Assembly: GCA_031405455.1 (NCBI GenBank)
Contig: JANNIY010000130.1
Location: 974-64,973, forward strand
From: Deltaproteobacteria bacterium
GTDB taxonomy: Bacteria; Myxococcota_A; UBA9160; SMWR01
Direction: 5' to 3'
DNA length: 64,000 bases
The notes under the pieces were generated by a model. The model ran no database searches. It saw nothing but the letters and a program-made list of their open reading frames with translations, and was not told where the DNA came from. This document shows positions 16,147 through 35,164 of this stretch, in pieces; positions within the stretch are counted from its first letter, which is position 1, and each line of letters opens with the position of its first letter. The position numbers and the translations under genes are program-made.

Positions 16147-17868
16147 TTACGCGAGTAGCTCCGCCGCGATCGCACGCAGCTCGCGCTTCCAACCGTCTCG
16201 GTCCGTGTGCACGACACGCTGCGCAACCGCGGGCCATTCCTGCGGCGGCTCGAAGCGCGCGGCGCTGTGCGCGTGAAACTCCGGTCCGGCATCGGAGGCG
16301 TCGTTGCCCGCAGCTTCGCGACGGGCGAGGCGTTCGCGGGCAATCGGAGCCGCGCAGCGTGTTTCGAGAAAGAACGCGCGCGCACCCCGCTCGTGCGCGA
16401 AGACGCGGGCTCGCTCGCGGTCGGCGGCGCGCGCCCACGTGGCGTCGAGCAAAACCGTCCGACCCGAAGCGAGCACCGGCGCAGCGCGTTCGAGCAGCCC
16501 CGCGTACACGCGGTCCTGGCGAGCCGGATCGTAGAGGCCCGAGTCGAGCCCGGCGCCCACGCGCGCCGTCGGGTCGAGGCCCGCCTGGCGCTTTCTCACC
16601 CGGTCGGAGGCGACGACGACTCCGGACAGGGCTTCTGCGAGCCCCGCCGCCGCGCTGCTCTTCCCGGATCCCACGATTCCCCCGACCAGCACGAGCGCAC
16701 CGGTCCCGCCCGGCGCGAGCACCTGCAACGCGAGGTCGAGGTGGCGCCGTGCGCTTTCGGCGGCGCGCGCGCGCTGCGCTGGATCGATGGCCGCATCCTG
16801 CGCTGCCAGCGAGGCCACCTTCGCTCGCACGCCGGCGCGGTAGCTCGTGAAGAAATCGACGAGCGCGTAGAGATCGAAATCATCGCTCTCGCGCGCATAG
16901 CTGCGCAAGAAATGCTCCGCCCTGGCCGCTGCATCCCGGTAGCGCAGGTCCATCGCGGGGAAAGCGACTTCGGCCGCGGCATCGATGCGGCGCAAGGCCT
17001 CCGAGAACTCGAGGCAATCGATCGCAATCGGCTCCGCGTCGTCGCGTTCGAACCACAGGTGCTGCAGGTGGAGATCGCCGTGGCCGTCGACGGCGCGGCC
17101 CGCGAGCCGGCGGCGCTCGAAGCGCTCGGCATGCGCCTCGGCAAAGGCGCGAGTTCGCGTCTCGAGTTCGCGCAGCACTTCGCTCGAGAGCAGCGCAGGC
17201 ACCGCCCCCGCGAGCAGGCGCAGATTGTCTTCCACCGGGCCGATGCAGCGCTGCCGCCACTGCTCGGGCGTGAAGGGCGCGGGCGTCCCCAGAGCGTGGC
17301 GCTCGTGGAAGCGCGCGATCAGCACCGCCGCGCTTTCGAGCTGGGCGTCCGAGAGCGCATCGCGCGCGAGCAGGGAGAGCGCGTCACGGCCCGCAGGCAG
17401 ACGGCGCATCACCACACAATGCTCGGGCCCGGAGCCTCCGGCCGCCGGCTGCGCGAGCGTTCCCCCGATGGGTCCGATCCGCACGGGCCCCTGCATCAGC
17501 GGAGCGACTCCGAGGTAGACGTCCGGGGCAAGACGACGGTTGAGCGTCACTTCTCGCAGGCAATCGGCGTTGCGCTCCGCGCGGGTCGTGAAACACACGA
17601 AGGAAAGATCCACGGCTTTGCGGAACTTGTAGACGCGATCGCCCGTCAGGAAGAGCTGGGAGAGATGCGTCTGCACGCGCTCGACGCCGGCCGCGGCGCT
17701 GGGATCGTCCGGGTAGGCGCCGGCTGCGGCGAGCGCGCCGAGATCTTCCGGCGAAAGCGAGGCCTCGGAGCGCGCGCCTTCCCCGAGCACTGCGTCGCGC
17801 TTGATGGGGGGCACGGGCAGCGCGACGGCTAGGCTTCGCCCGTCGCCTTCAGCGTGAGAACGGGGCAC
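16147..17868 (-). CDS. Bifunctional APH-like phosphotransferase / P-loop kinase-like protein
   Basis: The N-terminal half has the APH/choline-kinase-like catalytic motif GHGDLHLQHLW. The C-terminal half has the P-loop GGIVGSGKSS. The 5' end overlaps the USP 3' end by about 40 nt, so the start is uncertain. Confidence 0.75.
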   Translation of the reverse strand: MPRSHAEGDGRSLAVALPVPPIKRDAVLGEGARSEASLSPEDLGALAAAGAYPDDPSAAAGVERVQTHLSQLFLTGDRVYKFRKAVDLSFVCFTTRAERNADCLREVTLNRRLAPDVYLGVAPLMQGPVRIGPIGGTLAQPAAGGSGPEHCVVMRRLPAGRDALSLLARDALSDAQLESAAVLIARFHERHALGTPAPFTPEQWRQRCIGPVEDNLRLLAGAVPALLSSEVLRELETRTRAFAEAHAERFERRRLAGRAVDGHGDLHLQHLWFERDDAEPIAIDCLEFSEALRRIDAAAEVAFPAMDLRYRDAAARAEHFLRSYARESDDFDLYALVDFFTSYRAGVRAKVASLAAQDAAIDPAQRARAAESARRHLDLALQVLAPGGTGALVLVGGIVGSGKSSAAAGLAEALSGVVVASDRVRKRQAGLDPTARVGAGLDSGLYDPARQDRVYAGLLERAAPVLASGRTVLLDATWARAADRERARVFAHERGARAFFLETRCAAPIARERLARREAAGNDASDAGPEFHAHSAARFEPPQEWPAVAQRVVHTDRDGWKRELRAIAAELLA

Positions 17869-18278
17869 GGTGCGATCCGGACCGTGCGCTCAGCGACACT
17901 GCCGAGCAACACGTGCTTGAAGCCGGAGAGTCCGCGCGTTCCCATCACGATCAGGTCGGCGCCGATGCGCTCGGCCGTGGTCGCGATCGCTTCCGAGGGA
18001 AAGATCGGAGAGACTTCGGACTCCACGGCGATTTTCTGGCTCTCCACCTTCGCCCGCCATTCCTTCAGCTGCTTCGTCGCGGCTTCGCGGATGTCGCGAT
18101 CGAAGCTCTCGGGGATGACGAGGCCGTAGGGCGAAATCGCACCCACGTTGATCTGGTAGCAATGCAGAAGATGGAGTTTCGATCCGAACACCTTCGCGAG
18201 TTCGATCGCGGTCTCGAGCGCCCGCGAGGAGTGCGTCGAGAAGTCGACGGGAACGAGGATCTTGCGAAAGCCGGTCAT
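17829..18278 (-). CDS. Universal stress protein (UspA family)
   Basis: SD AAGGGAGGA precedes the ATG at 18278. KILVPVDFS at the N-terminus and the ATP-binding motif GTRGLSGFKHVLLGSVAERTV are present. Confidence 0.9.
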   Translation of the reverse strand: MTGFRKILVPVDFSTHSSRALETAIELAKVFGSKLHLLHCYQINVGAISPYGLVIPESFDRDIREAATKQLKEWRAKVESQKIAVESEVSPIFPSEAIATTAERIGADLIVMGTRGLSGFKHVLLGSVAERTVRIAPCPVLTLKATGEA

Positions 18279-18325
18279 GGGTCCTCCCTTGGCCAGGTCC
18301 AACCCGGCAACCTTCCCCTGGCTAA

Positions 18326-18341
18326 AGCAGATCACGTGCCA
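18326..18341 (-). promoter_or_regulatory. Sigma-54 type -24/-12 match (site F)
   Basis: The minus strand reads TGGCACGTGATCTGCT. It is intergenic, with the -12 C 49 nt upstream of the USP ATG. Confidence 0.65.
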
Positions 18342-18475
18342 AGCGGTCGCGGCGATGCAGGCGCCACCAACCTGAAATTCCATTCAGCGACTGGGTTGAT
18401 AGGGAACAGTCCTAGCCGAAAACGTAGCCCATTGCCACAGTTTTAGGTTCGCGCGAGCCAGCGAAATCAGATGGA

Positions 18476-18898
18476 TCACGCGCGTTCGGAGATCGCCGCC
18501 ACGAGGCCTTCCTCGCGTTTTTCGTGGTCGACCAGCACCGCGCACCAGTGCGCGAGCGCCTCCTGGGAGGCGGCGGCAGGCACCTGATCGAGCCGCTCGC
18601 CGAGTCGGCGCAGATCCGCGAGCAGGCTCGCATGCTCGCGCTCGAGCGCCTCGAGATCCGCCGACCGGGAAGGCGAAAGGCCGTGAAGCGCCGGAAAAAA
18701 GAAGCCTTGCTCGAGATCGAAGTGCGCAGCGAGGGCGACCTCGAAGCGATCCAGGGCGCTGCGCGCGTCGCTCAATGCACCGCGTCCGAGCGCGACTTCG
18801 ATCTCGCGCCGCAGCGCGGAAAGGTGGCGGTGTTGGTCCAAGGTCTGCTGTACGAGACGCTTCACCCGCAGCTGGAGACCCGTATCGAAGATCGGCAT
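18476..18898 (-). CDS. Hemerythrin-like (HHE cation-binding) domain protein
   Basis: 140 aa, all-helical. Spaced His/Glu/Asp ligand motifs are HRHL..., AAHFDLEQGFFFP, LEREH and LVDHEKRE. Confidence 0.7.
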   Translation of the reverse strand: MPIFDTGLQLRVKRLVQQTLDQHRHLSALRREIEVALGRGALSDARSALDRFEVALAAHFDLEQGFFFPALHGLSPSRSADLEALEREHASLLADLRRLGERLDQVPAAASQEALAHWCAVLVDHEKREEGLVAAISERA

Positions 18899-18957
18899 GC
18901 GGCGAGGTCACTCCTCTTCTTGCGCGCGGCGGGGCGCTTCCGCTGGCAAAGACTACC

Positions 18958-18973
18958 CGCAAACAGCGTGCCA
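18958..18973 (-). promoter_or_regulatory. Sigma-54 type -24/-12 match (site G)
   Basis: The minus strand reads TGGCACGCTGTTTGCG, an almost perfect TGGCACG-N4-TTGC. It lies 61 nt upstream of the hemerythrin ATG, with SD AGAGGAG in between. Confidence 0.65.
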
Positions 18974-19007
18974 GAAACCCCGGCGGATCGTTATCCCCTG
19001 CCCCGAC

Positions 19008-19355
19008 GTGGCCGAACGCATCCTGGTGATCGACGACGAGCCCGATCTGCTCGAGCTCGTGAGGGTGAACCTGCAACAGGCGGCTCTCTGGCTCGATTCC
19101 GGCCGCCACCGTTGCTTCGTCGCCGGCGTCGAAGTGATGCTCACGTCGGAAGAGTTCGGCCTGCTCGCCCGCTTGCTGGGCCCCCCCGGCCGCGTGATGA
19201 CGCGCGATTTTCTGATCCAGCACGTCTGGGGCGCCGACATCTCGGTCAAGGCCCGCACCATCGACACGCACCTCAAGCGCCTGCGCGAGAAACTGGGGCC
19301 GGCTGGCGACCTGATCGAGCCGGTGCGCGGGGCCGGCTATCGATTCGCAGAGTGA
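19008..19355 (+). CDS. Receiver-less OmpR/PhoB-type winged-helix protein (truncated paralogue of the 21332-22012 gene)
   Basis: The GTG start gives (M)AERILVIDDEPDLLELVRVNLQQA. This is joined directly to ...RHRCFVAGVEVMLTSEEF...RTIDTHLKRLREKLGPAGDLIEPVRGAGYRFAE. About 111 aa are absent, including the phospho-acceptor Asp region. Confidence 0.6.
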   Translation: MAERILVIDDEPDLLELVRVNLQQAALWLDSGRHRCFVAGVEVMLTSEEFGLLARLLGPPGRVMTRDFLIQHVWGADISVKARTIDTHLKRLREKLGPAGDLIEPVRGAGYRFAE

Positions 19356-19807
19356 GCGCTACGGCGGCTGACTCGCCGCGCGACACGCCCCTGGAAGCCG
19401 TGCCCGAAAGCCAACGCAAGCTCGTGGTCGCTCTCGCCGGGGATCGGCCCGCGTTGGCCTGGGCCGATCGCCGCGCCTGCGAGCAAATCCTCTCGAACCT
19501 TCTCGACAATGCGATCCAGTACACGGAGCCGGGCGGCAACATCGCGCTGCGGATCGCCAGCGACGATCGAGACTTGCGCATCGAAATACGTGATACCGGA
19601 ATCGGAATCTCCGAACGAAATCTCGCGCGGATCTTCGAGCGCTGCTACCGCGTCGACCAGGCGCGCTCGCGCGCCCAGGGCGGAACGGGGCTCGGCCTCG
19701 CCATCGTGAAGCACCAGGTGCAGAGCCTCGGCGGCACGATCCAGGTCGAAAGCCAGCTCGGGCGCGGCTCGACGTTTGCCTTCACGCTGCCGCGGCACGC
19801 GAGCTGA
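19352..19807 (+). CDS. HATPase_c-only remnant of a PhoR-like kinase (truncated paralogue of the 22009-23826 gene)
   Basis: The GTG overlaps the upstream stop (GTGA). The first ~30 aa match the PhoR-like N-terminus (SPRD...VP.SQR.LV.AL). The sequence then jumps to AWADRRACEQILSNLLDNAIQYTEPGG...DTGIGI...GGTGLGLAIV. TM, HAMP, PAS and HisKA are missing. Confidence 0.55.
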   Translation: MSATAADSPRDTPLEAVPESQRKLVVALAGDRPALAWADRRACEQILSNLLDNAIQYTEPGGNIALRIASDDRDLRIEIRDTGIGISERNLARIFERCYRVDQARSRAQGGTGLGLAIVKHQVQSLGGTIQVESQLGRGSTFAFTLPRHAS

Positions 19808-19927
19808 GCGGGACGTAAGGTTCCGGCTACAGCGCTACAGAGATTGGTCCCGATCCGGTAGCCTGTCTCGCCGCGAACCCCAGAAGGCTACGCTCGTCGC
19901 TGCTGGGCTCGCCGGAGGCTCATCCGC

Positions 19928-21124
19928 TTGCGAGCTCGACCGTTTCTAGCAGCGCTCATTGCAGCGAGCGTTTCCTTCGCGTCCTGTCTACTTCTCGCTG
20001 AGGTGGCGGTCCGCATCCTCAAGCGGGACTCGGCATTCCAGCCCGACCCGATGCAGTTTCGCTCCCTGCTGCCCGGGAAGGATCAACCCATCGCGACCTT
20101 CGAGACCGATGACAACCTGAACGGGCGTTCGAACGAGATTCCAGAGCGGGCGATCTCCGCCGGCACCCGTCACACGAACAACCTGGGCCTGCGAATGGCC
20201 GAGGATATCGGACCCAAGGCTCCAGACGAGCACCGCGTGCTGCTGCTGGGGGATTCCTATACCGAAGCACTCGACGTTTCCTTCGAACATCGCTTCGATG
20301 GCGTGGCGCAAACCCTCCTCACGCAGGCGAACCGCGCTGAATGGGTCGACTGGCGGATCGTCAACGCAGGCATCCAGAACGGCAGCCCTTCCCAGTACCT
20401 GCTGATGCTGCGCCGGCTGCTACCGCTCGTGAAGCCGAATCTCGTGATCGTCGTGGCGGGTTCGAACGACCTGGGCGACGACATCGAGTGGGAGAACCAA
20501 TACGGCTTCGAGCTGGATGCGGATGGCGTGCCGCTCCGCCCGGCTCGGCGCACTCAGCTATGGCTGCTCCAGAAATCCTATCTGCTGCGCTACCTGCAGG
20601 TCTTTCTCGCGCAATTCACGCCAGGCATACACTCATTCCTGTTCGCCACACGCGACGCGGCCGTTCCGCCGCCGAGCTGGCTGGCGGTGTCCTGCCGCCA
20701 GGCGGCCGATGTCCCCGCGCTCTTCGAGGACAAGACCGGTCGCTACCTGGTCGAGATCCAGGCGATGGCTGAGGCCGCAGGCGCGCGTTTCGGCGTGCTC
20801 GTGATCCACTACAGCTATTCCTTCGCGAACGAACCCTTCTACGAGCCGCGCTTCCCGGGAATCCAGACGACGCTCACGGAGGCGCGCTGTGCCGAAGTCA
20901 ACGCACGTCCCTACGTCGCGCTCATCGATGGCTTTCTCGAGCGTCGTGGCATTCCCTATCGCGACACCCACGCGGCCTTTTCTGCGGCGAAGCGCGAGAC
21001 GCCGAGTCGCAAGCTCTGGAACTTCTTCGACTACCATTTTTCGCCGGCTGGGCACGCGATCGCAGGCGCGGAACTCGCCGCGCTCTTGCAGGCGATGAGG
21101 GGCGATCCCGCCATCACGCCCTAG
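19928..21124 (+). CDS. SGNH/GDSL-family hydrolase-like membrane-anchored protein
   Basis: TTG start and an N-terminal TM segment. Block I is LLLGDSYTE, block III AGSNDLG and block V DYHFSPAGH (DxxH). Confidence 0.65.
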   Translation: MRARPFLAALIAASVSFASCLLLAEVAVRILKRDSAFQPDPMQFRSLLPGKDQPIATFETDDNLNGRSNEIPERAISAGTRHTNNLGLRMAEDIGPKAPDEHRVLLLGDSYTEALDVSFEHRFDGVAQTLLTQANRAEWVDWRIVNAGIQNGSPSQYLLMLRRLLPLVKPNLVIVVAGSNDLGDDIEWENQYGFELDADGVPLRPARRTQLWLLQKSYLLRYLQVFLAQFTPGIHSFLFATRDAAVPPPSWLAVSCRQAADVPALFEDKTGRYLVEIQAMAEAAGARFGVLVIHYSYSFANEPFYEPRFPGIQTTLTEARCAEVNARPYVALIDGFLERRGIPYRDTHAAFSAAKRETPSRKLWNFFDYHFSPAGHAIAGAELAALLQAMRGDPAITP

Positions 21125-21331
21125 CCCCTGGGGATTGGCAAGTCTTCCGAAAAGCGCGGGCAGCGGCACCAGGCCGAGATCTCCCAGTTCACCCGAGACA
21201 CGCGGGGCCGAGCCCAGGCGCTTTCCATGTGGCGAATGAGTGACGAATCCGGGGTGATTGGCAGACACCCGGTCGGATCGCCTGGCGAACGGATTCCCGC
21301 TGCGCGGCTCGACCGTTATTCTCTACCCCCA

Positions 21332-22012
21332 ATGGCAGAACGAATCCTGGTGATCGACGACGAGCCGGATCTTCTCGAGCTGGTGCGGGTAAACCTGCAT
21401 CAGGCCGGCTATCGCGTGGAAACGGCCGATTCGGGTCGCCGCGGCCTCGAGCAGATGCGCCGCAGCAAGCCAGACCTCGTCATCCTCGACCTGATGCTTC
21501 CGGACCTCTCGGGCACCGAATTGTGCCGGCAGGTGCGCGCCGACAGCGAGCTCTCCCGGATACCGATCATCATGCTCACCGCCCGGGCGGACGAGGTCGA
21601 TCGCGTCGTTGGATTCGAGATCGGCGCGGACGATTATGTGACCAAGCCGTTCAGCCCACGCGAGCTCACCCTGCGCGTTGCCGCCGTGCTGCGCCGCAAG
21701 CCAACGCGCGCCGGCGCCGCGGCGAAGCTCGAGCACGGCGCGGTCACGCTCGACCCTGAGCGCCACCGCTGCTTTGTCGCCGGGACCGAAGTGAAGCTCA
21801 CCGCGAAGGAGTTCGACCTGCTCGCGAGCCTGATGACACGCCCCGGCCGCGTGATGACGCGCGATTTCCTGCTCGAGCACGTCTGGGGCGCCGACATCTC
21901 GGTCACCGCGCGCACCATCGACACCCACCTCAAGCGCTTGCGCGAGAAGTTGGGGCCCGCCGGGGACCTGATTGAGACAGTGCGCGGAGTCGGCTATCGA
22001 TTCGCGGAATGA
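21332..22012 (+). CDS. phoB: OmpR/PhoB-family response regulator
   Basis: REC domain (ILVIDDEPD...DLVILDLMLPDLSG...KPF) plus Trans_reg_C (RTIDTHLKRLREKL...GYRF). It is translationally coupled (ATGA) to a PhoR-like kinase in a Pho-gene neighbourhood. The symbol is inferred from context. Confidence 0.85.
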   Translation: MAERILVIDDEPDLLELVRVNLHQAGYRVETADSGRRGLEQMRRSKPDLVILDLMLPDLSGTELCRQVRADSELSRIPIIMLTARADEVDRVVGFEIGADDYVTKPFSPRELTLRVAAVLRRKPTRAGAAAKLEHGAVTLDPERHRCFVAGTEVKLTAKEFDLLASLMTRPGRVMTRDFLLEHVWGADISVTARTIDTHLKRLREKLGPAGDLIETVRGVGYRFAE

Positions 22013-23826
22013 GCGCTGCGGCGACGGGCTCGCCGCGCGACGCGATCCGAGGGGCCGTGCCCAAGAGCCAACGCAATCTCGTGGCCGCGCTCGTGGGGCT
22101 CGCGCTCTTCGTCGTCGCCGTGACGGGCGCCCTCGTCGAGCATGGGCTGCGAGGCGAGCAGGCTGCACGCGTGCAGCGCGAGCTCGAGCAGGAGGCTCGC
22201 GCGCTCGCCAACCAGGCGCAGGGGCTGGGCTTCGAACCTGCCTCGCGCCCCACGCTCGATGCGCTGGCCGATCGGATTTCGGCGGCGACGGGTGCGCGTG
22301 TCACGTGGATCGCCCGCGATGGAACGGTGCTCGGCGATTCCGACGCACGCATCGAAAAGCTTCCCGACCTCGGTGATCACGCGGCGCGCCCGGAAATCCG
22401 GGACGCCTTCGCGGGTCGAACCGGCGTCGCGCGACGCCGCAGCGTGAGCGTCGGCCGCGAGCTTTTCTACGTGGCCGTCCCGGTCGGAGAGGACGCGCGC
22501 GGCGTCGTTCGTCTCGCGGTCGACGCGGCGCAGCTCACGCCGGATCTCACTGCGCACGCCAGCTGGTTCCTCGCCGCCGCGGGCATCGGGCTCGTCGCCG
22601 CGTGCCTCCTGGTTGCAGCGCTTTCCGGCAGCACCCTGCGTCCAATTCGCGAGATGCGCCGCATGGCTGCGGCAATCGCTGCCGGAGATCACGGCTATCG
22701 CTTGCCGCTGCGTTTCGGCGAGGAACTCGGCGATATTGCAACGGCCTTGCAGCAGATGGCCGAGCAGCTGCGCGAGCGCGCGGCGCACGCGATGCGCGAG
22801 AAGGACCAGCTCCAGGCGGTCTTGAACGGCATGATCGAGGGCGTGCTCGTGGTCGACCCGGATCAACAGGTTCTGCTCGGAAACCAGCGCATGCTCGAAT
22901 TCTTCGGCCTGACCTCCGCGCCGCCCGGGCGCACCACGCTGGAAACATTCCGGCACGCGGATCTCGTGGGCGTTCTGAAGGCCGCCGCGGACACCGACGA
23001 GCCGGTTTCGCAGGCGATCGAGGTGGCGCACCCGACCCACCGCACGCTTCGCGTGCACGCGGTGCGCTTCCCTCCCGGCCGCGCCTCGCGCGCGGGCACG
23101 GTCGCGGTGCTGCACGACGTGACCGAGTTGATGCAGCTCGAAAAAATGCGGCGCGATTTCGTGGCGAACGCCTCGCACGAGCTGCGTACACCGCTCGCCG
23201 CAATTCATGGCTTCGCAGAAACGTTGCTCTCGAATCCCTCGCTCAGCGATGCCGACCGGCGCGCCTATCTCGAGGTGATCGATCGTCACGCCAAGCGGCT
23301 GGGCGCGATCGTGACCGATCTGCTCGAGCTCTCGAAGATCGAGAGCCGCGAAACGGTCTTTGCGCTCGCCTCCATCGACACGGGCCATTTGATCGAGACG
23401 CTGCTCCGCGAGTGGCGCCCGCGCATCGAGGAGAAACGCCTGAATGTCTCGCTCGCGAGCGAGCGCCCCGGAATCGCCTGGGCCGATCCCCAGGCTTGTG
23501 AGCAGATCCTCTCGAACCTGCTCGACAACGCCATCAAGTACACGGAGCCGGGCGGCAAGATCGAGGTGCGGGTCGGCGGAAACGAGCGCAATCTGCGCGT
23601 CGATGTGAGCGACACCGGAATGGGGATCCCCGAACGCGATCTTGCGCGGATCTTCGAGCGCTTCTACCGGGTCGATCAGGCGCGCTCGCGCGCCCAGGGC
23701 GGCACGGGCCTCGGCCTCGCAATCGTGAAGCATCTGGTGCAGAGCCTGGGCGGGACGATCCATGTCGAGAGCCAGCTCGGACGCGGCTCGAAATTCACGT
23801 TCACGCTGCCGCGCCACATGGATTGA
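22009..23826 (+). CDS. phoR: PhoR-like sensor histidine kinase (TM-HAMP-PAS-HisKA-HATPase)
   Basis: Two TM segments, then HAMP (IREMRRMAAAIAAGD) and PAS domains. The H-box is FVANASHELRTPLAAIHGF. N/G boxes are NLLDNAIKYT, DTGMGI and GGTGLGLAIV. Confidence 0.85.
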   Translation: MSAAATGSPRDAIRGAVPKSQRNLVAALVGLALFVVAVTGALVEHGLRGEQAARVQRELEQEARALANQAQGLGFEPASRPTLDALADRISAATGARVTWIARDGTVLGDSDARIEKLPDLGDHAARPEIRDAFAGRTGVARRRSVSVGRELFYVAVPVGEDARGVVRLAVDAAQLTPDLTAHASWFLAAAGIGLVAACLLVAALSGSTLRPIREMRRMAAAIAAGDHGYRLPLRFGEELGDIATALQQMAEQLRERAAHAMREKDQLQAVLNGMIEGVLVVDPDQQVLLGNQRMLEFFGLTSAPPGRTTLETFRHADLVGVLKAAADTDEPVSQAIEVAHPTHRTLRVHAVRFPPGRASRAGTVAVLHDVTELMQLEKMRRDFVANASHELRTPLAAIHGFAETLLSNPSLSDADRRAYLEVIDRHAKRLGAIVTDLLELSKIESRETVFALASIDTGHLIETLLREWRPRIEEKRLNVSLASERPGIAWADPQACEQILSNLLDNAIKYTEPGGKIEVRVGGNERNLRVDVSDTGMGIPERDLARIFERFYRVDQARSRAQGGTGLGLAIVKHLVQSLGGTIHVESQLGRGSKFTFTLPRHMD

Positions 23827-23889
23827 GGCGCCTGCTCCAGGCAATCTCGCTCCGGTCAGCTCCGCAATCGAAGGCCCAACGCGAGCCGA

Positions 23890-26028
23890 TCACGGGCGAA
23901 GCAGAGAACTCGCGCTCGCGGAAGAACTCTCGGCAGCGTCTGCTCGTCGCGCGCGCAGTTCGGCTCGCTCGAGCAGGAAGCGATGCGCATCGATGCCCGT
24001 ACAGCGCGCCGCGCGTGTCCAGCTTCCCTCGGGTCCGAGCTCCCAAGCGAGCACGTCGTCGGCGAGGTTCGCGGCGAGGACTTCCTCGAGGCGAGCGCGC
24101 AGTTCCGGGGCTTCGATCGGCGTGACGACCTCGACGCGCCGATCCAGGTTGCGGGTCATCAGATCCGCAGAGCCGATGAAGTAGCGCCGGCCGCGCCGCT
24201 CGCTGCCGAAACGGAAGATGCGCGAGTGCTCGAGAAAGCGTCCCAGCAGCGAACGCACGCGGATGCGCTCCGAAAGCCCCGGCACACCCGGCCGCAGGCA
24301 GCAGATTCCGCGCACGATGAGATCGATTTCGACACCCGCTGCCGACGCCGCGTACAAGGCTTCGATGATCTCGGGATCCTCGAGGCTGTTCACCTTGACG
24401 ACGATCTCGCCATCGCGCGCGGCCACTTCCTCGTTGATGTGAGCCAGCAGCGACGAGCGCAGCCCCTCGGGCGCAACCAGAAGCTTGCGGTAACGCCGCG
24501 GCCGCCCACAACCCGTCAGGTAGTTGAACAGCTCCGTGAGATCGGCTCCGAGCTCGGGCGATGCCGAGAGCAATCCCAGATCCTCGTAGCTGGTGGCGGT
24601 GGTCGGGTTGTAGTTTCCGGTCCCGATGTGACAGTAGCGGCGGATGCCCCCGCCCTCGCGGCGCACGACGAGCGCGATCTTTCCGTGCGCCTTCAATCCC
24701 ACGAGGCCGTAGACGACGTGCACGCCCGCCCGCTCGAGCGTGCGCGCCCACTCGATGTTCGCCTCCTCGTCGAAGCGTGCCTTCAGCTCCACGAGCGTCA
24801 CGACCTGCTTGCCAGCCTCTGCCGCCCGCGCCAGCGTGAGGGCGACGGGATTCGCGGGACCCGATGTTCGGTAGAGGGTGTGTTTGATCGCGAGCACGTC
24901 CGGATCCGCTGCCGCCTGACCTAGAAAGCCCTCGACCGACGATCGAAACGATTCGTAGGGATGGTGCACGAGCACGTCGCCACGCTTGAGCACTTCGAAG
25001 AAGTCGGGGCTGGCTCCCGTCGGGCCGGGAGCCAGCCGCGCAGGTGTCCAAGCCGTCGCCGGCTCGTGTTTCAGATCCGGCCTCGGCAGTGCAGCGATCT
25101 CCGCGAGGCACGAGAGGTCGAGCGGGTCACGCACCCGGAAGACGGCGTCTTGCTCGAGTTCGAGCTCGGCGCTGAGCAGATCGCGCACCTGCGTCGAAAT
25201 CGAATCCGATACCTCGAGACGAATCGGCGGGCTGCCGCGCCGGCGCCGCTTGATGCCGGATTCGATTGCGGCGAGCAGGTCGTCGGCCTCGTCCTCAGTG
25301 ATTCCGATCTCCGCATCTCGCGTCACGCGGAAGGGGCCGCACGAAACGATCTCCATACCCGGAAACAGCGCGCCGATGTGAGCGGTGATCACCTCTTCGA
25401 TCGGAACGAAGCGAGACGCCGAAAGCGCGAGCCAGCGCGGGAAAACGGGCGGCACCTTCACGCGCGCAAAACGGTGCTCGCCCGTTCCCGCGTCGCTGAC
25501 GACGATGGCCAGCGACAGAGAGAGACTCGAGACGTACGGAAATGGATGGGCGGGATCGACAGAAAGTGGCGTCAACACGGGAAAGATCTTCTCGTCGAAG
25601 AGGCTGGATCCGCGAGCCTGCTCTTCGACCGTCAACTCCCCGAACGCGCACAAGTCGATGCCCGCCGCGCTGAGCGCCGGCACGAGCGTCTTGGCGAACA
25701 ACTCGACCTGGCGTTCGATCAGGGATTCGACCTCGCCCCGAATCCGCTGCAGCTGCTCGCCTGCGATGAGCCCGTCGGGAGACGGGATGGCCACGCCCGA
25801 GTCGAGCTGGACGGTGAGGCCTGCGACCCGCACCTGGAAGAACTCGTCGAGATTGTGGGCGGAGATGGCGAGGTACCGCACCCGCTCGAGCAGCGGGCAG
25901 GCCGGATCCTCGGCGAGCGCGAGCACCCTCCGATTGAACCCGAGCCAGGAAAGCTCGCGATTCAGGAAGCGCGCTGGTCCCCGCACCGACCCCGCGGGCG
26001 CACCTGCCCTACTCTCGGCTCCCGGCAT
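23890..26028 (-). CDS. ppk: Polyphosphate kinase 1
   Basis: 712 aa. The N-terminus is RFLNRELSWLGFNRRVL...NLDEFFQVRV. The autophosphorylated-His region is THYCHIGTGNYN-like (RRYCHIGTGNYNP). Two PLD-like C-terminal domains follow. Confidence 0.93.
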   Translation of the reverse strand: MPGAESRAGAPAGSVRGPARFLNRELSWLGFNRRVLALAEDPACPLLERVRYLAISAHNLDEFFQVRVAGLTVQLDSGVAIPSPDGLIAGEQLQRIRGEVESLIERQVELFAKTLVPALSAAGIDLCAFGELTVEEQARGSSLFDEKIFPVLTPLSVDPAHPFPYVSSLSLSLAIVVSDAGTGEHRFARVKVPPVFPRWLALSASRFVPIEEVITAHIGALFPGMEIVSCGPFRVTRDAEIGITEDEADDLLAAIESGIKRRRRGSPPIRLEVSDSISTQVRDLLSAELELEQDAVFRVRDPLDLSCLAEIAALPRPDLKHEPATAWTPARLAPGPTGASPDFFEVLKRGDVLVHHPYESFRSSVEGFLGQAAADPDVLAIKHTLYRTSGPANPVALTLARAAEAGKQVVTLVELKARFDEEANIEWARTLERAGVHVVYGLVGLKAHGKIALVVRREGGGIRRYCHIGTGNYNPTTATSYEDLGLLSASPELGADLTELFNYLTGCGRPRRYRKLLVAPEGLRSSLLAHINEEVAARDGEIVVKVNSLEDPEIIEALYAASAAGVEIDLIVRGICCLRPGVPGLSERIRVRSLLGRFLEHSRIFRFGSERRGRRYFIGSADLMTRNLDRRVEVVTPIEAPELRARLEEVLAANLADDVLAWELGPEGSWTRAARCTGIDAHRFLLERAELRARRADAAESSSASASSLLRP

Positions 26029-26118: not shown

Positions 26119-26817
26119 CTATTGCTCGTCGCCGTCCGAGAAGCGGTAGCCGACACCCCGCACCGTCTCCAGACAATCGCGCGCGGGGCCGAGCTTGCGG
26201 CGGATCGCCTTGATATGCGCATCGACAGCGCGGTCCGAATGGAAAGCGTTCTCGCCCCAAACCTGCTCGATCAACGCTCTCCGGCGCACGACCCGCCCGG
26301 CTTGCGAGACGAGCGCGGCGAGCAGCTGGAACTCGGTGGGGGTGAGATCGATACGCGTGCCCGAAACCTCGGCACGGGCGCGTTCCCGATCGACGCTGAC
26401 GAGCCCCGCGATCTGGCTCGCGGGGCTCGCATCGGCGCCAGCAAATCCACGCAGAACCGCCGCCACGCGCGCCGCCAGCTCGGGTGCGTAGAAAGGCTTC
26501 GACAGGAAATCGTCCGCCCCCGCCTCGAAGGCCAGCACCCGATCGATCTCGGTCGCTTGCGCCGACACCAGGATTACCGGCGTGCGCGCGAGCGCCGGAG
26601 TTTCGCGAATCAGACGGCACAACCCCAATCCGGAGAGGTCGGCCAGATAGCTGTCGAGCAGGATCACGTCCGGGCGCTCGCGGGTGGCCTGGTGCAGCGC
26701 ATCGCGCGCTGATTGTGCCTCGCGACAATCGAAGCGCGGCGGCGAGAGGATCGCGGCGATCCGCCGCCGCGAGTCGGGGTCGCCATCGACCAGCAACACC
26801 CGCTTCGAAGCTTCCAT
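26119..26817 (-). CDS. Orphan OmpR-family response regulator
   Basis: REC domain (VLLVDGDPD...DVILLDSYLADLSG...KPF) plus winged helix (LTPTEFQLLAAL...VDAHIKAIRRKL...GYRF). Confidence 0.88.
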   Translation of the reverse strand: MEASKRVLLVDGDPDSRRRIAAILSPPRFDCREAQSARDALHQATRERPDVILLDSYLADLSGLGLCRLIRETPALARTPVILVSAQATEIDRVLAFEAGADDFLSKPFYAPELAARVAAVLRGFAGADASPASQIAGLVSVDRERARAEVSGTRIDLTPTEFQLLAALVSQAGRVVRRRALIEQVWGENAFHSDRAVDAHIKAIRRKLGPARDCLETVRGVGYRFSDGDEQ

Positions 26818-33653: not shown

Positions 33654-33671
33654 TGTGACGGATGTGTGAAT
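33654..33671 (-). promoter_or_regulatory. Pho-box-like direct repeat upstream of pstS
   Basis: The minus strand reads aTTCACAcatcCGTCACAc: two hexamers 11 bp apart, 79-96 nt upstream of the pstS ATG. The same TTCAC-N6-GTCAC arrangement occurs upstream of the porin gene. Confidence 0.5.
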
Positions 33672-33687
33672 ACGTCCCGATCGCAGC

Positions 33688-35104: not shown

Positions 35105-35164
35105 GATTTGTGAACGTCAGGTTCCGGGAATGTGACGAATTCGTGAAGTCACGATCGCGTGAAG
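35105..35164 (-). promoter_or_regulatory. Array of Pho-box-like 11-bp phased repeats upstream of the porin-pst operon
   Basis: The minus strand reads CTTCACgcgatcgtgaCTTCACgaattCGTCACattccCGGAACctgacGTTCACaaatc. Four units sit on an exact 11-bp register, with one extra unit upstream. Confidence 0.5.

Follow-up and report, generated by a model that had tools for sequence, protein, structure and literature searches.

A collapsed second copy of phoB-phoR in a deltaproteobacterial genome, probably a lineage-specific remnant

The closest described counterparts of the locus reported here are the two-component system formed by PhoB and PhoR, the engineered output domain of Escherichia coli PhoB, and the gene duplicates and remnants that decay in bacterial genomes under deletion bias. 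A HisKA-type kinase that lacks its DHp domain can neither dimerise nor phosphorylate as a kinase does. The output domain of E. coli PhoB is said to have been studied in isolation by Makino in 1996, and it is represented by the structures 1GXP, 1GXQ and 3T72. In PMC3264566, which cites Ellison and McCleary (2000), the isolated domain is reported as binding the pho box at 63 nM, compared with 440 nM for unphosphorylated PhoB. The locus described here lies in a window of 64,000 nucleotides, meaning the whole stretch of DNA analysed, from a Deltaproteobacteria bacterium (assembly GCA_031405455.1, contig JANNIY010000130.1, positions 974 to 64,973, forward strand). Two short genes in this window, called mini-R (19008-19355, +; 115 aa, winged helix only) and mini-K (19352-19807, +; 151 aa, HATPase_c only), stand 2.3 kb from an intact phoB-phoR pair. 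An earlier note, based on the sequence alone, had described them as a collapsed duplicate of phoB-phoR retained under selection. We found that the collapse was described correctly, and consider it likely, though by no means certain, that what survives here is a lineage-specific remnant of a second phoB-phoR, duplicated or displaced, and that it has no function or at most a vestigial one.

Derivation of the mini pair from phoB and phoR

Genes in the window, whose GC content is 67%, were placed with a mechanical list of open reading frames (ORFs) and a third-position GC filter. The intact pair of the parent type consists of phoB (21332-22012, +; 226 aa), with the Pfam domains Response_reg and Trans_reg_C, and phoR (22009-23826, +; 605 aa), with HAMP, PAS, HisKA and HATPase_c. 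Local alignment of the mini pair with this parent type gave three colinear blocks, which were 19008-19083 against 21332-21407 (66 of 76 positions identical, 87%), 19091-19441 against 21748-22098 (289 of 351, 82%) and 19457-19798 against 23476-23817 (287 of 342, 84%). The middle block alone gave a BLAST E value of ~1e-86, a leader of 18 bp was also aligned, and the overall nucleotide identity was ~83.6%, in agreement with the 80-85% estimated earlier. The repeat search detected the same blocks at spacings of 2324, 2657 and 4019 nt. The differences between these spacings correspond to the loss of 333 nt (111 codons) from phoB and 1362 nt (454 codons) from phoR, and both deletions are in frame, as the earlier note had stated. 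The junctions were located near 19083-19090 in mini-R and near 19441-19457 in mini-K, and short in-phase microhomology was seen at both (AAsCTs.A.CA.G.C and CGCTCG, respectively).

Both mini genes begin with GTG, and the start codon of mini-K overlaps the stop codon of mini-R. The coupling through GTGA proposed earlier is therefore kept as a stop/start overlap, although the full pair has ATGA at this position and only the mini pair has GTGA. The proposal that 18989-19807 aligns end to end with the intact copy apart from two deletions applied to the genes, which are colinear, and not to the DNA before them, where a third deletion of ~185 bp has left only ~33 bp of shared leader. Four separately assembled Logan contigs (L001-L004), originating from four sequencing runs, were 100% identical over both junctions and both flanks, and both mini ORFs were called as genes in all assemblies. 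These results establish the mini pair as a second phoB-phoR in collapsed form.

Residues 1-25 of mini-R correspond to residues 1-25 of PhoB (23 of 25 identical) and residues 26-115 to PhoB 137-226 (72 of 90), so that parent residues 26-136, including the LDL region with the acceptor Asp, are deleted. The Pfam analysis of mini-R detected only Trans_reg_C (E=5e-22, profile positions 3-77 of 77) and no Response_reg, and the stretch RTIDTHLKRLREKLGPAGDLIE was identical in the mini and full copies. The claim that the regulator had lost its receiver with the acceptor Asp and kept its winged helix was thus correct according to both Pfam and the alignment. In the structure 1GXP of the E. coli PhoB DNA-binding domain, residues 9-103 were aligned with mini-R, whose winged-helix domain is thus complete. 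The protein accordingly covers the same residues as the crystallised domain, a kind of fragment that in E. coli is reported (PMC3264566) to bind the pho box without phosphorylation. It differs from that engineered domain in carrying a receiver stub of 25 residues and in having replacements where its close relatives show no variation. When compared with ~90 homologues, mini-R has replacements at eight positions conserved at 83-100% (T105P, T81K, L70I, R59P, A47S, M57L, K48E and V109A), while no replacement at such positions was found in the full copy or in the orthologue from L005, a related metagenome-assembled genome described below. In T105P, a wing-strand Thr that aligns with the Thr in QTVRG, also a wing strand, is replaced by Pro. 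The N-terminal parts of the family alignments used for these counts were misaligned and were ignored. The junction of mini-R reads LQQAAL where the parent reads LEHGAV, a resemblance that arose by coincidence.

In mini-K, residues 1-30 correspond to PhoR 1-30 (18 of 30 identical) and residues 31-151 to PhoR 485-605 (92 of 121). The deletion of PhoR 31-484 includes HisKA at 380-446, and only ~8 residues of the first transmembrane (TM) segment are left. Pfam detected HATPase_c over its full length (E=5e-32) and no HisKA, HAMP or PAS, and mini-K retains the regions N, G1, F and G2. The earlier description was accurate on the loss of TM, HAMP, PAS and HisKA and on the retention of the first 30 residues. 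The ATP-binding domain that it considered complete would be so by Pfam boundaries only. In the AlphaFold model of PhoR 436-605, with a predicted local distance difference test score (pLDDT) of 90, the strand beta1 (454-457), the helix alpha1 (458-475) and the strand beta2 (479-484) precede the N-box helix, and the first beta-alpha-beta unit of the catalytic domain (PhoR 454-484) is therefore predicted to fall inside the deletion. The model of mini-K (pLDDT 80, low in the N-terminal 30 residues) starts at the N-box helix and superposes on the catalytic domains of WalK and HK853. This pLDDT was not used as evidence of stability because the confidence reflects the family alignment. Mini-K also carries the replacements K56Q, V79I, P87S, L122Q and F98C, the last changing to Cys the F-box Phe that is invariant in 119 homologues. 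As there is no DHp domain, mini-K should be unable to dimerise or to phosphorylate as a kinase.

The mini pair thus resembles the PhoB-PhoR system in its 83% nucleotide identity to the resident phoBR, its gene order, its stop/start overlap, its winged helix and its nucleotide-binding motifs, but it is without the receiver, the acceptor Asp, TM, HAMP, PAS, HisKA and the phospho-acceptor His. Since both the acceptor Asp and the H box are missing, no phosphotransfer is possible and the pair lacks the features that define a two-component system.

Distribution, upstream DNA and constraint

The protein searches covered a database of 5.8 billion clusters (5.8e9) and a collection of 15 billion proteins. 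The exact mini-R and mini-K proteins were singleton clusters in the latter, and among the 5.8e9 clusters there was no other sequence with either junction and no diverged orthologue of either protein; the next-best matches were ordinary PhoR and PhoB or fragments of them, at ≤77% identity. The mini pair was thus seen in one uncultured bacterial population only. Scanning with Ppk identified the metagenome-assembled genome L005 ('uncultured delta proteobacterium'), whose Ppk is 81% identical, with other Myxococcota next at ~60%. PhoB fragments led to L085 and L086, two more relatives, both of them long-read contigs with frameshift noise. Each of the three has one intact phoBR, back to back with hemerythrin and beside usp and AAA_33; the intact PhoB and PhoR of the window share 93% and 81% amino acid identity, respectively, with those of L005. 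Neither the mini pair nor the GDSL gene that follows it in the window was present at this locus in L005, L085 or L086. The earlier note had held that absence of the mini pair from all relatives would speak against its claim, and such absence was observed here.

As the single phoBR of the relatives is beside hemerythrin, the mini pair sits at the ancestral phoBR position. The comparison showed an ancestral layout of hemerythrin, phoB-phoR and ppk, and the GDSL gene and the second phoBR copy are therefore specific to this lineage. Between phoR and ppk, L005 has a ppx/GppA-like ORF of ~1.75 kb (12119-13835 in L005), and a Ppx-GppA gene follows phoR in L085 and L086. The window has only 63 bp at this place (23827-23889), which indicates that ppx was lost or moved in this lineage; the absence of ppx together with the insertion of the GDSL gene indicates that the locus was rearranged on both sides of the intact copy. 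No relative closer than a synonymous divergence (dS) of ~0.5 was found among those recovered.

Two other shortened PhoB-like proteins were encountered in unrelated metagenomes. P0210 (97 aa, L091 1652-1945; 6 contigs) has receiver residues 1-53 fused to the end of the winged helix and is encoded beside a PhoU-like gene, and P0125 (196 aa) misses ~30 residues around the linker. Like mini-R, each derives from a phoB-type gene by an in-frame internal deletion and is nevertheless called as a gene. They differ from the mini pair in their junctions and organisms and in having no kinase remnant, and P0210 is the opposite outcome to mini-R, the N-terminus of its receiver being retained and its winged helix mostly lost. 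Their occurrence suggests that in-frame collapsed PhoB-like remnants are not rare.

The third deletion was determined from intergenic alignments of the window, L005, L085 and L086. It lies in the region between hemerythrin and mini-R, with its junction at 18977-18985, and the intergenic length between hemerythrin and the phoB-type gene is 109 bp in the window compared with 293 bp in L005. The four intact loci share, upstream of phoB, a direct repeat with 11-bp spacing (TGGCGAAtgagTGACGAA; 21230-21247, + in the window), two further blocks, and GTTATCC ~13 nt before the start codon. The repeat and the blocks gATgTTTGGCAGACA and GCTTCCCG are deleted upstream of mini-R. On the phoB side the mini copy retains only ~33 bp of ancestral upstream DNA, including GTTATCC, and the hemerythrin-side part of the region, with the sigma-54-type element described below, also survives. 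In the five-way alignment, the residual leader with the conserved GTTATCC (18985-19007, +) was the sole upstream sequence shared with the intact copies, all conserved upstream blocks but the last being gone from the mini copy.

The repeat at 21230-21247 is Pho-box-like, and its positional conservation in the four genomes was the only property of it used here. It may be regarded as a candidate Pho box because a similar repeat with a GTCAC core (TCACACatccgTCACAC, ~33655-33676, -) precedes a pstS-like gene. A further direct repeat with an 11-bp period is located at 35133-35150 (+); all three repeats have the core GTGAC/GTCAC and may be regarded as candidate Pho boxes. With respect to the gene that follows, the 21230-21247 repeat and the one upstream of the pstS-like gene are oriented differently. 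Across the window, the Pho-box-like pattern was not enriched (8 matches vs 4.5 expected). A Shine-Dalgarno sequence was absent from all five phoB copies, and GTTATCC is conserved ~13 nt before the start in each of them (21300-21331 and 18985-19007 in the window; L005, L085 and L086), suggesting that the phoB message is leaderless or nearly so in this clade.

The pairwise ratio of non-synonymous to synonymous divergence (dN/dS, or omega) between the mini and full copies was 0.19 for R and 0.35 for K by the Nei-Gojobori method. The earlier note had held that a value near 1 would speak against retention, and the values are indeed not near 1; a pairwise ratio, however, mixes both branches and averages the whole history since the split, so that a low value is explained equally well by deletions that came recently, after the copy had long been intact. 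The dS values were 0.48 for mini-full, 0.53 for mini-L005 and 0.49 for full-L005, and this star-like pattern indicates that the phoBR copies are about as old as the split from L005. The flanking orthologues showed dS of 0.61-0.75. Quartet counts with L085 and L086 favoured mini with full only weakly (12:6:9). Recent gene conversion between the two copies was considered and rejected, the longest identical run being 30 nt and runs of equal length also occurring against L005.

Omega assigned to single branches by the Nei-Gojobori method was 0.34 for mini, 0.19 for full and 0.11 for L005, and our own codon maximum likelihood (ML) model with F3x4 gave 0.14, 0.09 and 0.04, respectively. With a shared background omega of 0.06 in the ML analysis, the mini branch (0.14) differed at p=0.02. 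By parsimony, the mini branch received 43 non-synonymous and 33 synonymous changes (omega ~0.46). It was thus mostly constrained, yet evolved 2-3 times faster than the intact lineages. By our own arithmetic, this excess expressed as a terminal neutral phase would occupy ~9-22% of the branch, or roughly 18-45 substitutions. Within the retained domains, 30 amino acid changes are unique to the mini copy and 12 to the full copy. When non-synonymous and synonymous changes in the DNA-binding domain were counted strictly over five taxa, the ratio was 15:7 for mini vs 5:14 for the four intact lineages combined (Fisher p=0.012). Constraint was therefore relaxed on the mini branch relative to functional homologues.

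The 25-codon receiver stub, which should be of no use to a protein without a receiver, acquired 3 synonymous changes and no non-synonymous one on the mini branch (P=0.018 under neutrality), with H23Q not assigned to a branch as its codon differs in all three sequences, and the retained mini-R domain had 17 non-synonymous and 13 synonymous changes. A conserved stub beside a relaxed DNA-binding domain is the reverse of what would follow from an early deletion and subsequent selection on the winged helix. The pattern is in keeping with a deletion that happened recently when measured against the branch length, and in view of the small numbers it is taken as supporting evidence only.

The earlier argument for retention had started from the open frames and the two in-frame deletions, and both turned out to be near the chance expectation. 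Only ~2% of random substitutions create a stop in the mini ORFs, and the probability of no stop is 0.70 after 18 neutral substitutions, 0.38 after 50 and 0.23 after 75, the mini branch having ~75 substitutions. In DNA this rich in GC, long open frames come about easily. An antisense ORF of 616 aa runs across phoR (21994-23844, -), and an ORF of 427 aa (18524-19807, +) runs through the antisense strand of hemerythrin, mini-R out of frame and the frame of mini-K. Codon periodicity raises the share of direct 6-mer repeat pairs that are in phase from a naive 33% to 76% in phoB, to 54% in phoR and to 57% over 21 genes. If the deletions arose at microhomology, both would be in frame by chance with a probability of ~0.4, not 0.11. 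Open frames and in-frame deletions are consequently a weak argument for retention under selection. Given also the lost upstream blocks, the replaced near-invariant residues and the 2-3 times higher omega of the mini branch, retention under selection was not upheld.

Neighbouring genes and elements

The left neighbour of the mini pair is a hemerythrin-domain gene (18476-18898, -; Pfam Hemerythrin E=9.6e-14), followed by usp (17829-18383, -). A pattern search detected a sigma-54-type -24/-12 element (TGGCACGCTGTTTGCG, 18958-18973, -) before the hemerythrin gene, conserved in the intergenic alignment with L005, and the mini pair is back to back with this element as noted earlier. The window contains 4 matches to the sigma-54-type pattern vs 0.5 expected, and a second one (TGGCACGTGATCTGCT, 18326-18341, -) precedes usp. 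Following the intergenic deletion, an upstream activator site for the hemerythrin element, if there is any, would fall inside mini-R. No sigma-70-like promoter was found in 18300-21500 by a consensus scan of little power in this taxon, whose outcome was left out of the evidence.

The orphan gene between the two phoBR copies encodes a GDSL/SGNH hydrolase (19928-21124, +; Pfam Lipase_GDSL_2) and starts 120 bp past the mini-K stop on the same strand, without a visible promoter of its own. Its closest homologues (73% and 63% identity) are in unrelated neighbourhoods, those at 73% having MBOAT and ALGX as neighbours in a cluster for polysaccharide modification (L087, L088), and are therefore uninformative on the history of the locus. 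When the GDSL protein was used as an anchor in scans of genome and metagenome contigs, the rearranged locus was not found. On the other side of the intact pair is ppk (23890-26028, -), adjoined by a second OmpR/PhoB-family response regulator (26119-26817, -) that is 44% identical to PhoB, has no adjacent kinase, and is kept at the same place in L005, L085 and L086. Rfam families were not detected anywhere in the window, and the repeat search found no flanking repeats pointing to a mobile element.

Explanations for the mini pair and their meaning

A remnant of the second phoB-phoR copy, as favoured above, would have had the following history. Either two intact copies coexisted, or the resident copy on the hemerythrin side was displaced by an incoming GDSL-phoBR segment; the star-like dS values and the weak quartets would allow tandem duplication as well as displacement. 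The intact phase may have lasted for most of the divergence of dS ~0.24 per branch, and its length would be the reason why the sequence still looks constrained. Redundancy would then have relaxed selection on the hemerythrin-side copy, and its promoter region and signalling modules would have been deleted recently in three deletions at microhomology. The frames would stay open only because GC-rich DNA rarely generates stops, and the Pho response would run through the intact pair at 21332-23826.

This history agrees with what is known of decaying bacterial duplicates. The mini pair derives from an intact parent type only 2.3 kb away, has multiple microhomology deletions, has lost conserved upstream DNA, occurs in one lineage only and shows accelerated non-synonymous change that includes invariant residues. 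It differs from such duplicates in having acquired no frameshift or stop yet and in an averaged omega well below 1, and the mini pair accordingly looks 'alive' to gene callers. It thus has most features of a gene remnant except a disrupted frame.

Several observations weigh against a remnant. Both mini ORFs are open without a stop or frameshift, both deletions preserve the frame, and the stop/start overlap is kept. The crystallised PhoB DNA-binding domain is covered in full by mini-R, whose recognition helix is identical. There is the E. coli precedent, reported in PMC3264566, of an isolated PhoB domain that binds better than unphosphorylated PhoB, and AlphaFold models the rest of mini-K confidently (pLDDT 80). 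A likelihood ratio test over the whole mini branch rejected omega_mini=1 (p=2.5e-7), and in view of this test some constraint may have persisted after the deletions. In addition, the relatives are only three, all at dS of ~0.5 or more, so that the timing of the deletions is inferred and not observed.

Some of these observations also speak for the explanation of the earlier note. It supposed that mini-R is a phosphorylation-independent activator or competitor at Pho boxes and mini-K a free ATP-binding module, both under selection, and we consider this unlikely. Besides the open frames, the in-frame deletions and the GTGA overlap, it is favoured by the complete winged-helix domain, a mini-branch omega significantly below 1, the activity of the isolated PhoB output domain of E. 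coli as reported in PMC3264566, and the conserved GTTATCC kept just upstream of the mini-R start. However, no orthologue with either junction appeared in the database searches and the three closest relatives lack the pair, all conserved upstream blocks but GTTATCC are deleted, and near-invariant sites carry radical replacements (T105P, T81K, R59P and F98C). The receiver remnant is conserved where the DNA-binding domain is relaxed, mini-K is without three secondary-structure elements and a DHp partner, and the statistics of open and in-frame ORFs fail in GC-rich DNA. Given the restricted distribution, the upstream loss, the relaxed constraint and the incomplete fold of mini-K, a functional reading of the mini proteins is not supported.

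A quite improbable explanation is that the frames have been kept open to permit translated transcription into the GDSL gene, avoiding Rho-dependent polarity. The GDSL gene follows the mini-K stop at a distance of 120 bp and in the same orientation, both deletions kept the frame, and no sigma-70-like site was found in 18300-21500, albeit by a consensus scan that is weak for this organism. The idea is nevertheless purely inferential, the mini pair's own upstream promoter region is deleted, and chance accounts for the open frames. An assembly artefact, i.e. a chimeric or collapsed contig, can practically be dismissed, since, although the source is a metagenome-assembled genome and repeats are prone to misassembly, L001-L004 from four runs agree completely over the junctions and unique flanks and the mini copy differs by 17% from the full copy, too much for collapsed full-copy reads.

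Even if the pair is a remnant, mini-R might still be made, either leaderless from GTTATCC or by read-through, and might provide basal Pho-box occupancy or competition independent of phosphorylation; we regard this as a long shot. If true, mini-R would amount to the constitutive output domain engineered from PhoB, only of natural origin and seen shortly after it arose from a redundant duplicate. A two-component regulator would then have escaped phosphorylation control through domain loss in nature, in a single population only, which would be relevant to students of signalling evolution.

The main value of the mini pair is methodological. The case cautions that a GC-rich remnant can keep open, in-frame and domain-positive ORFs together with a pairwise dN/dS well below 1, and automatic annotation would call such a remnant as two genes. 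Past constraint and present function are told apart here by outgroups, branch rates, upstream conservation, and null expectations for stops and deletion phase.

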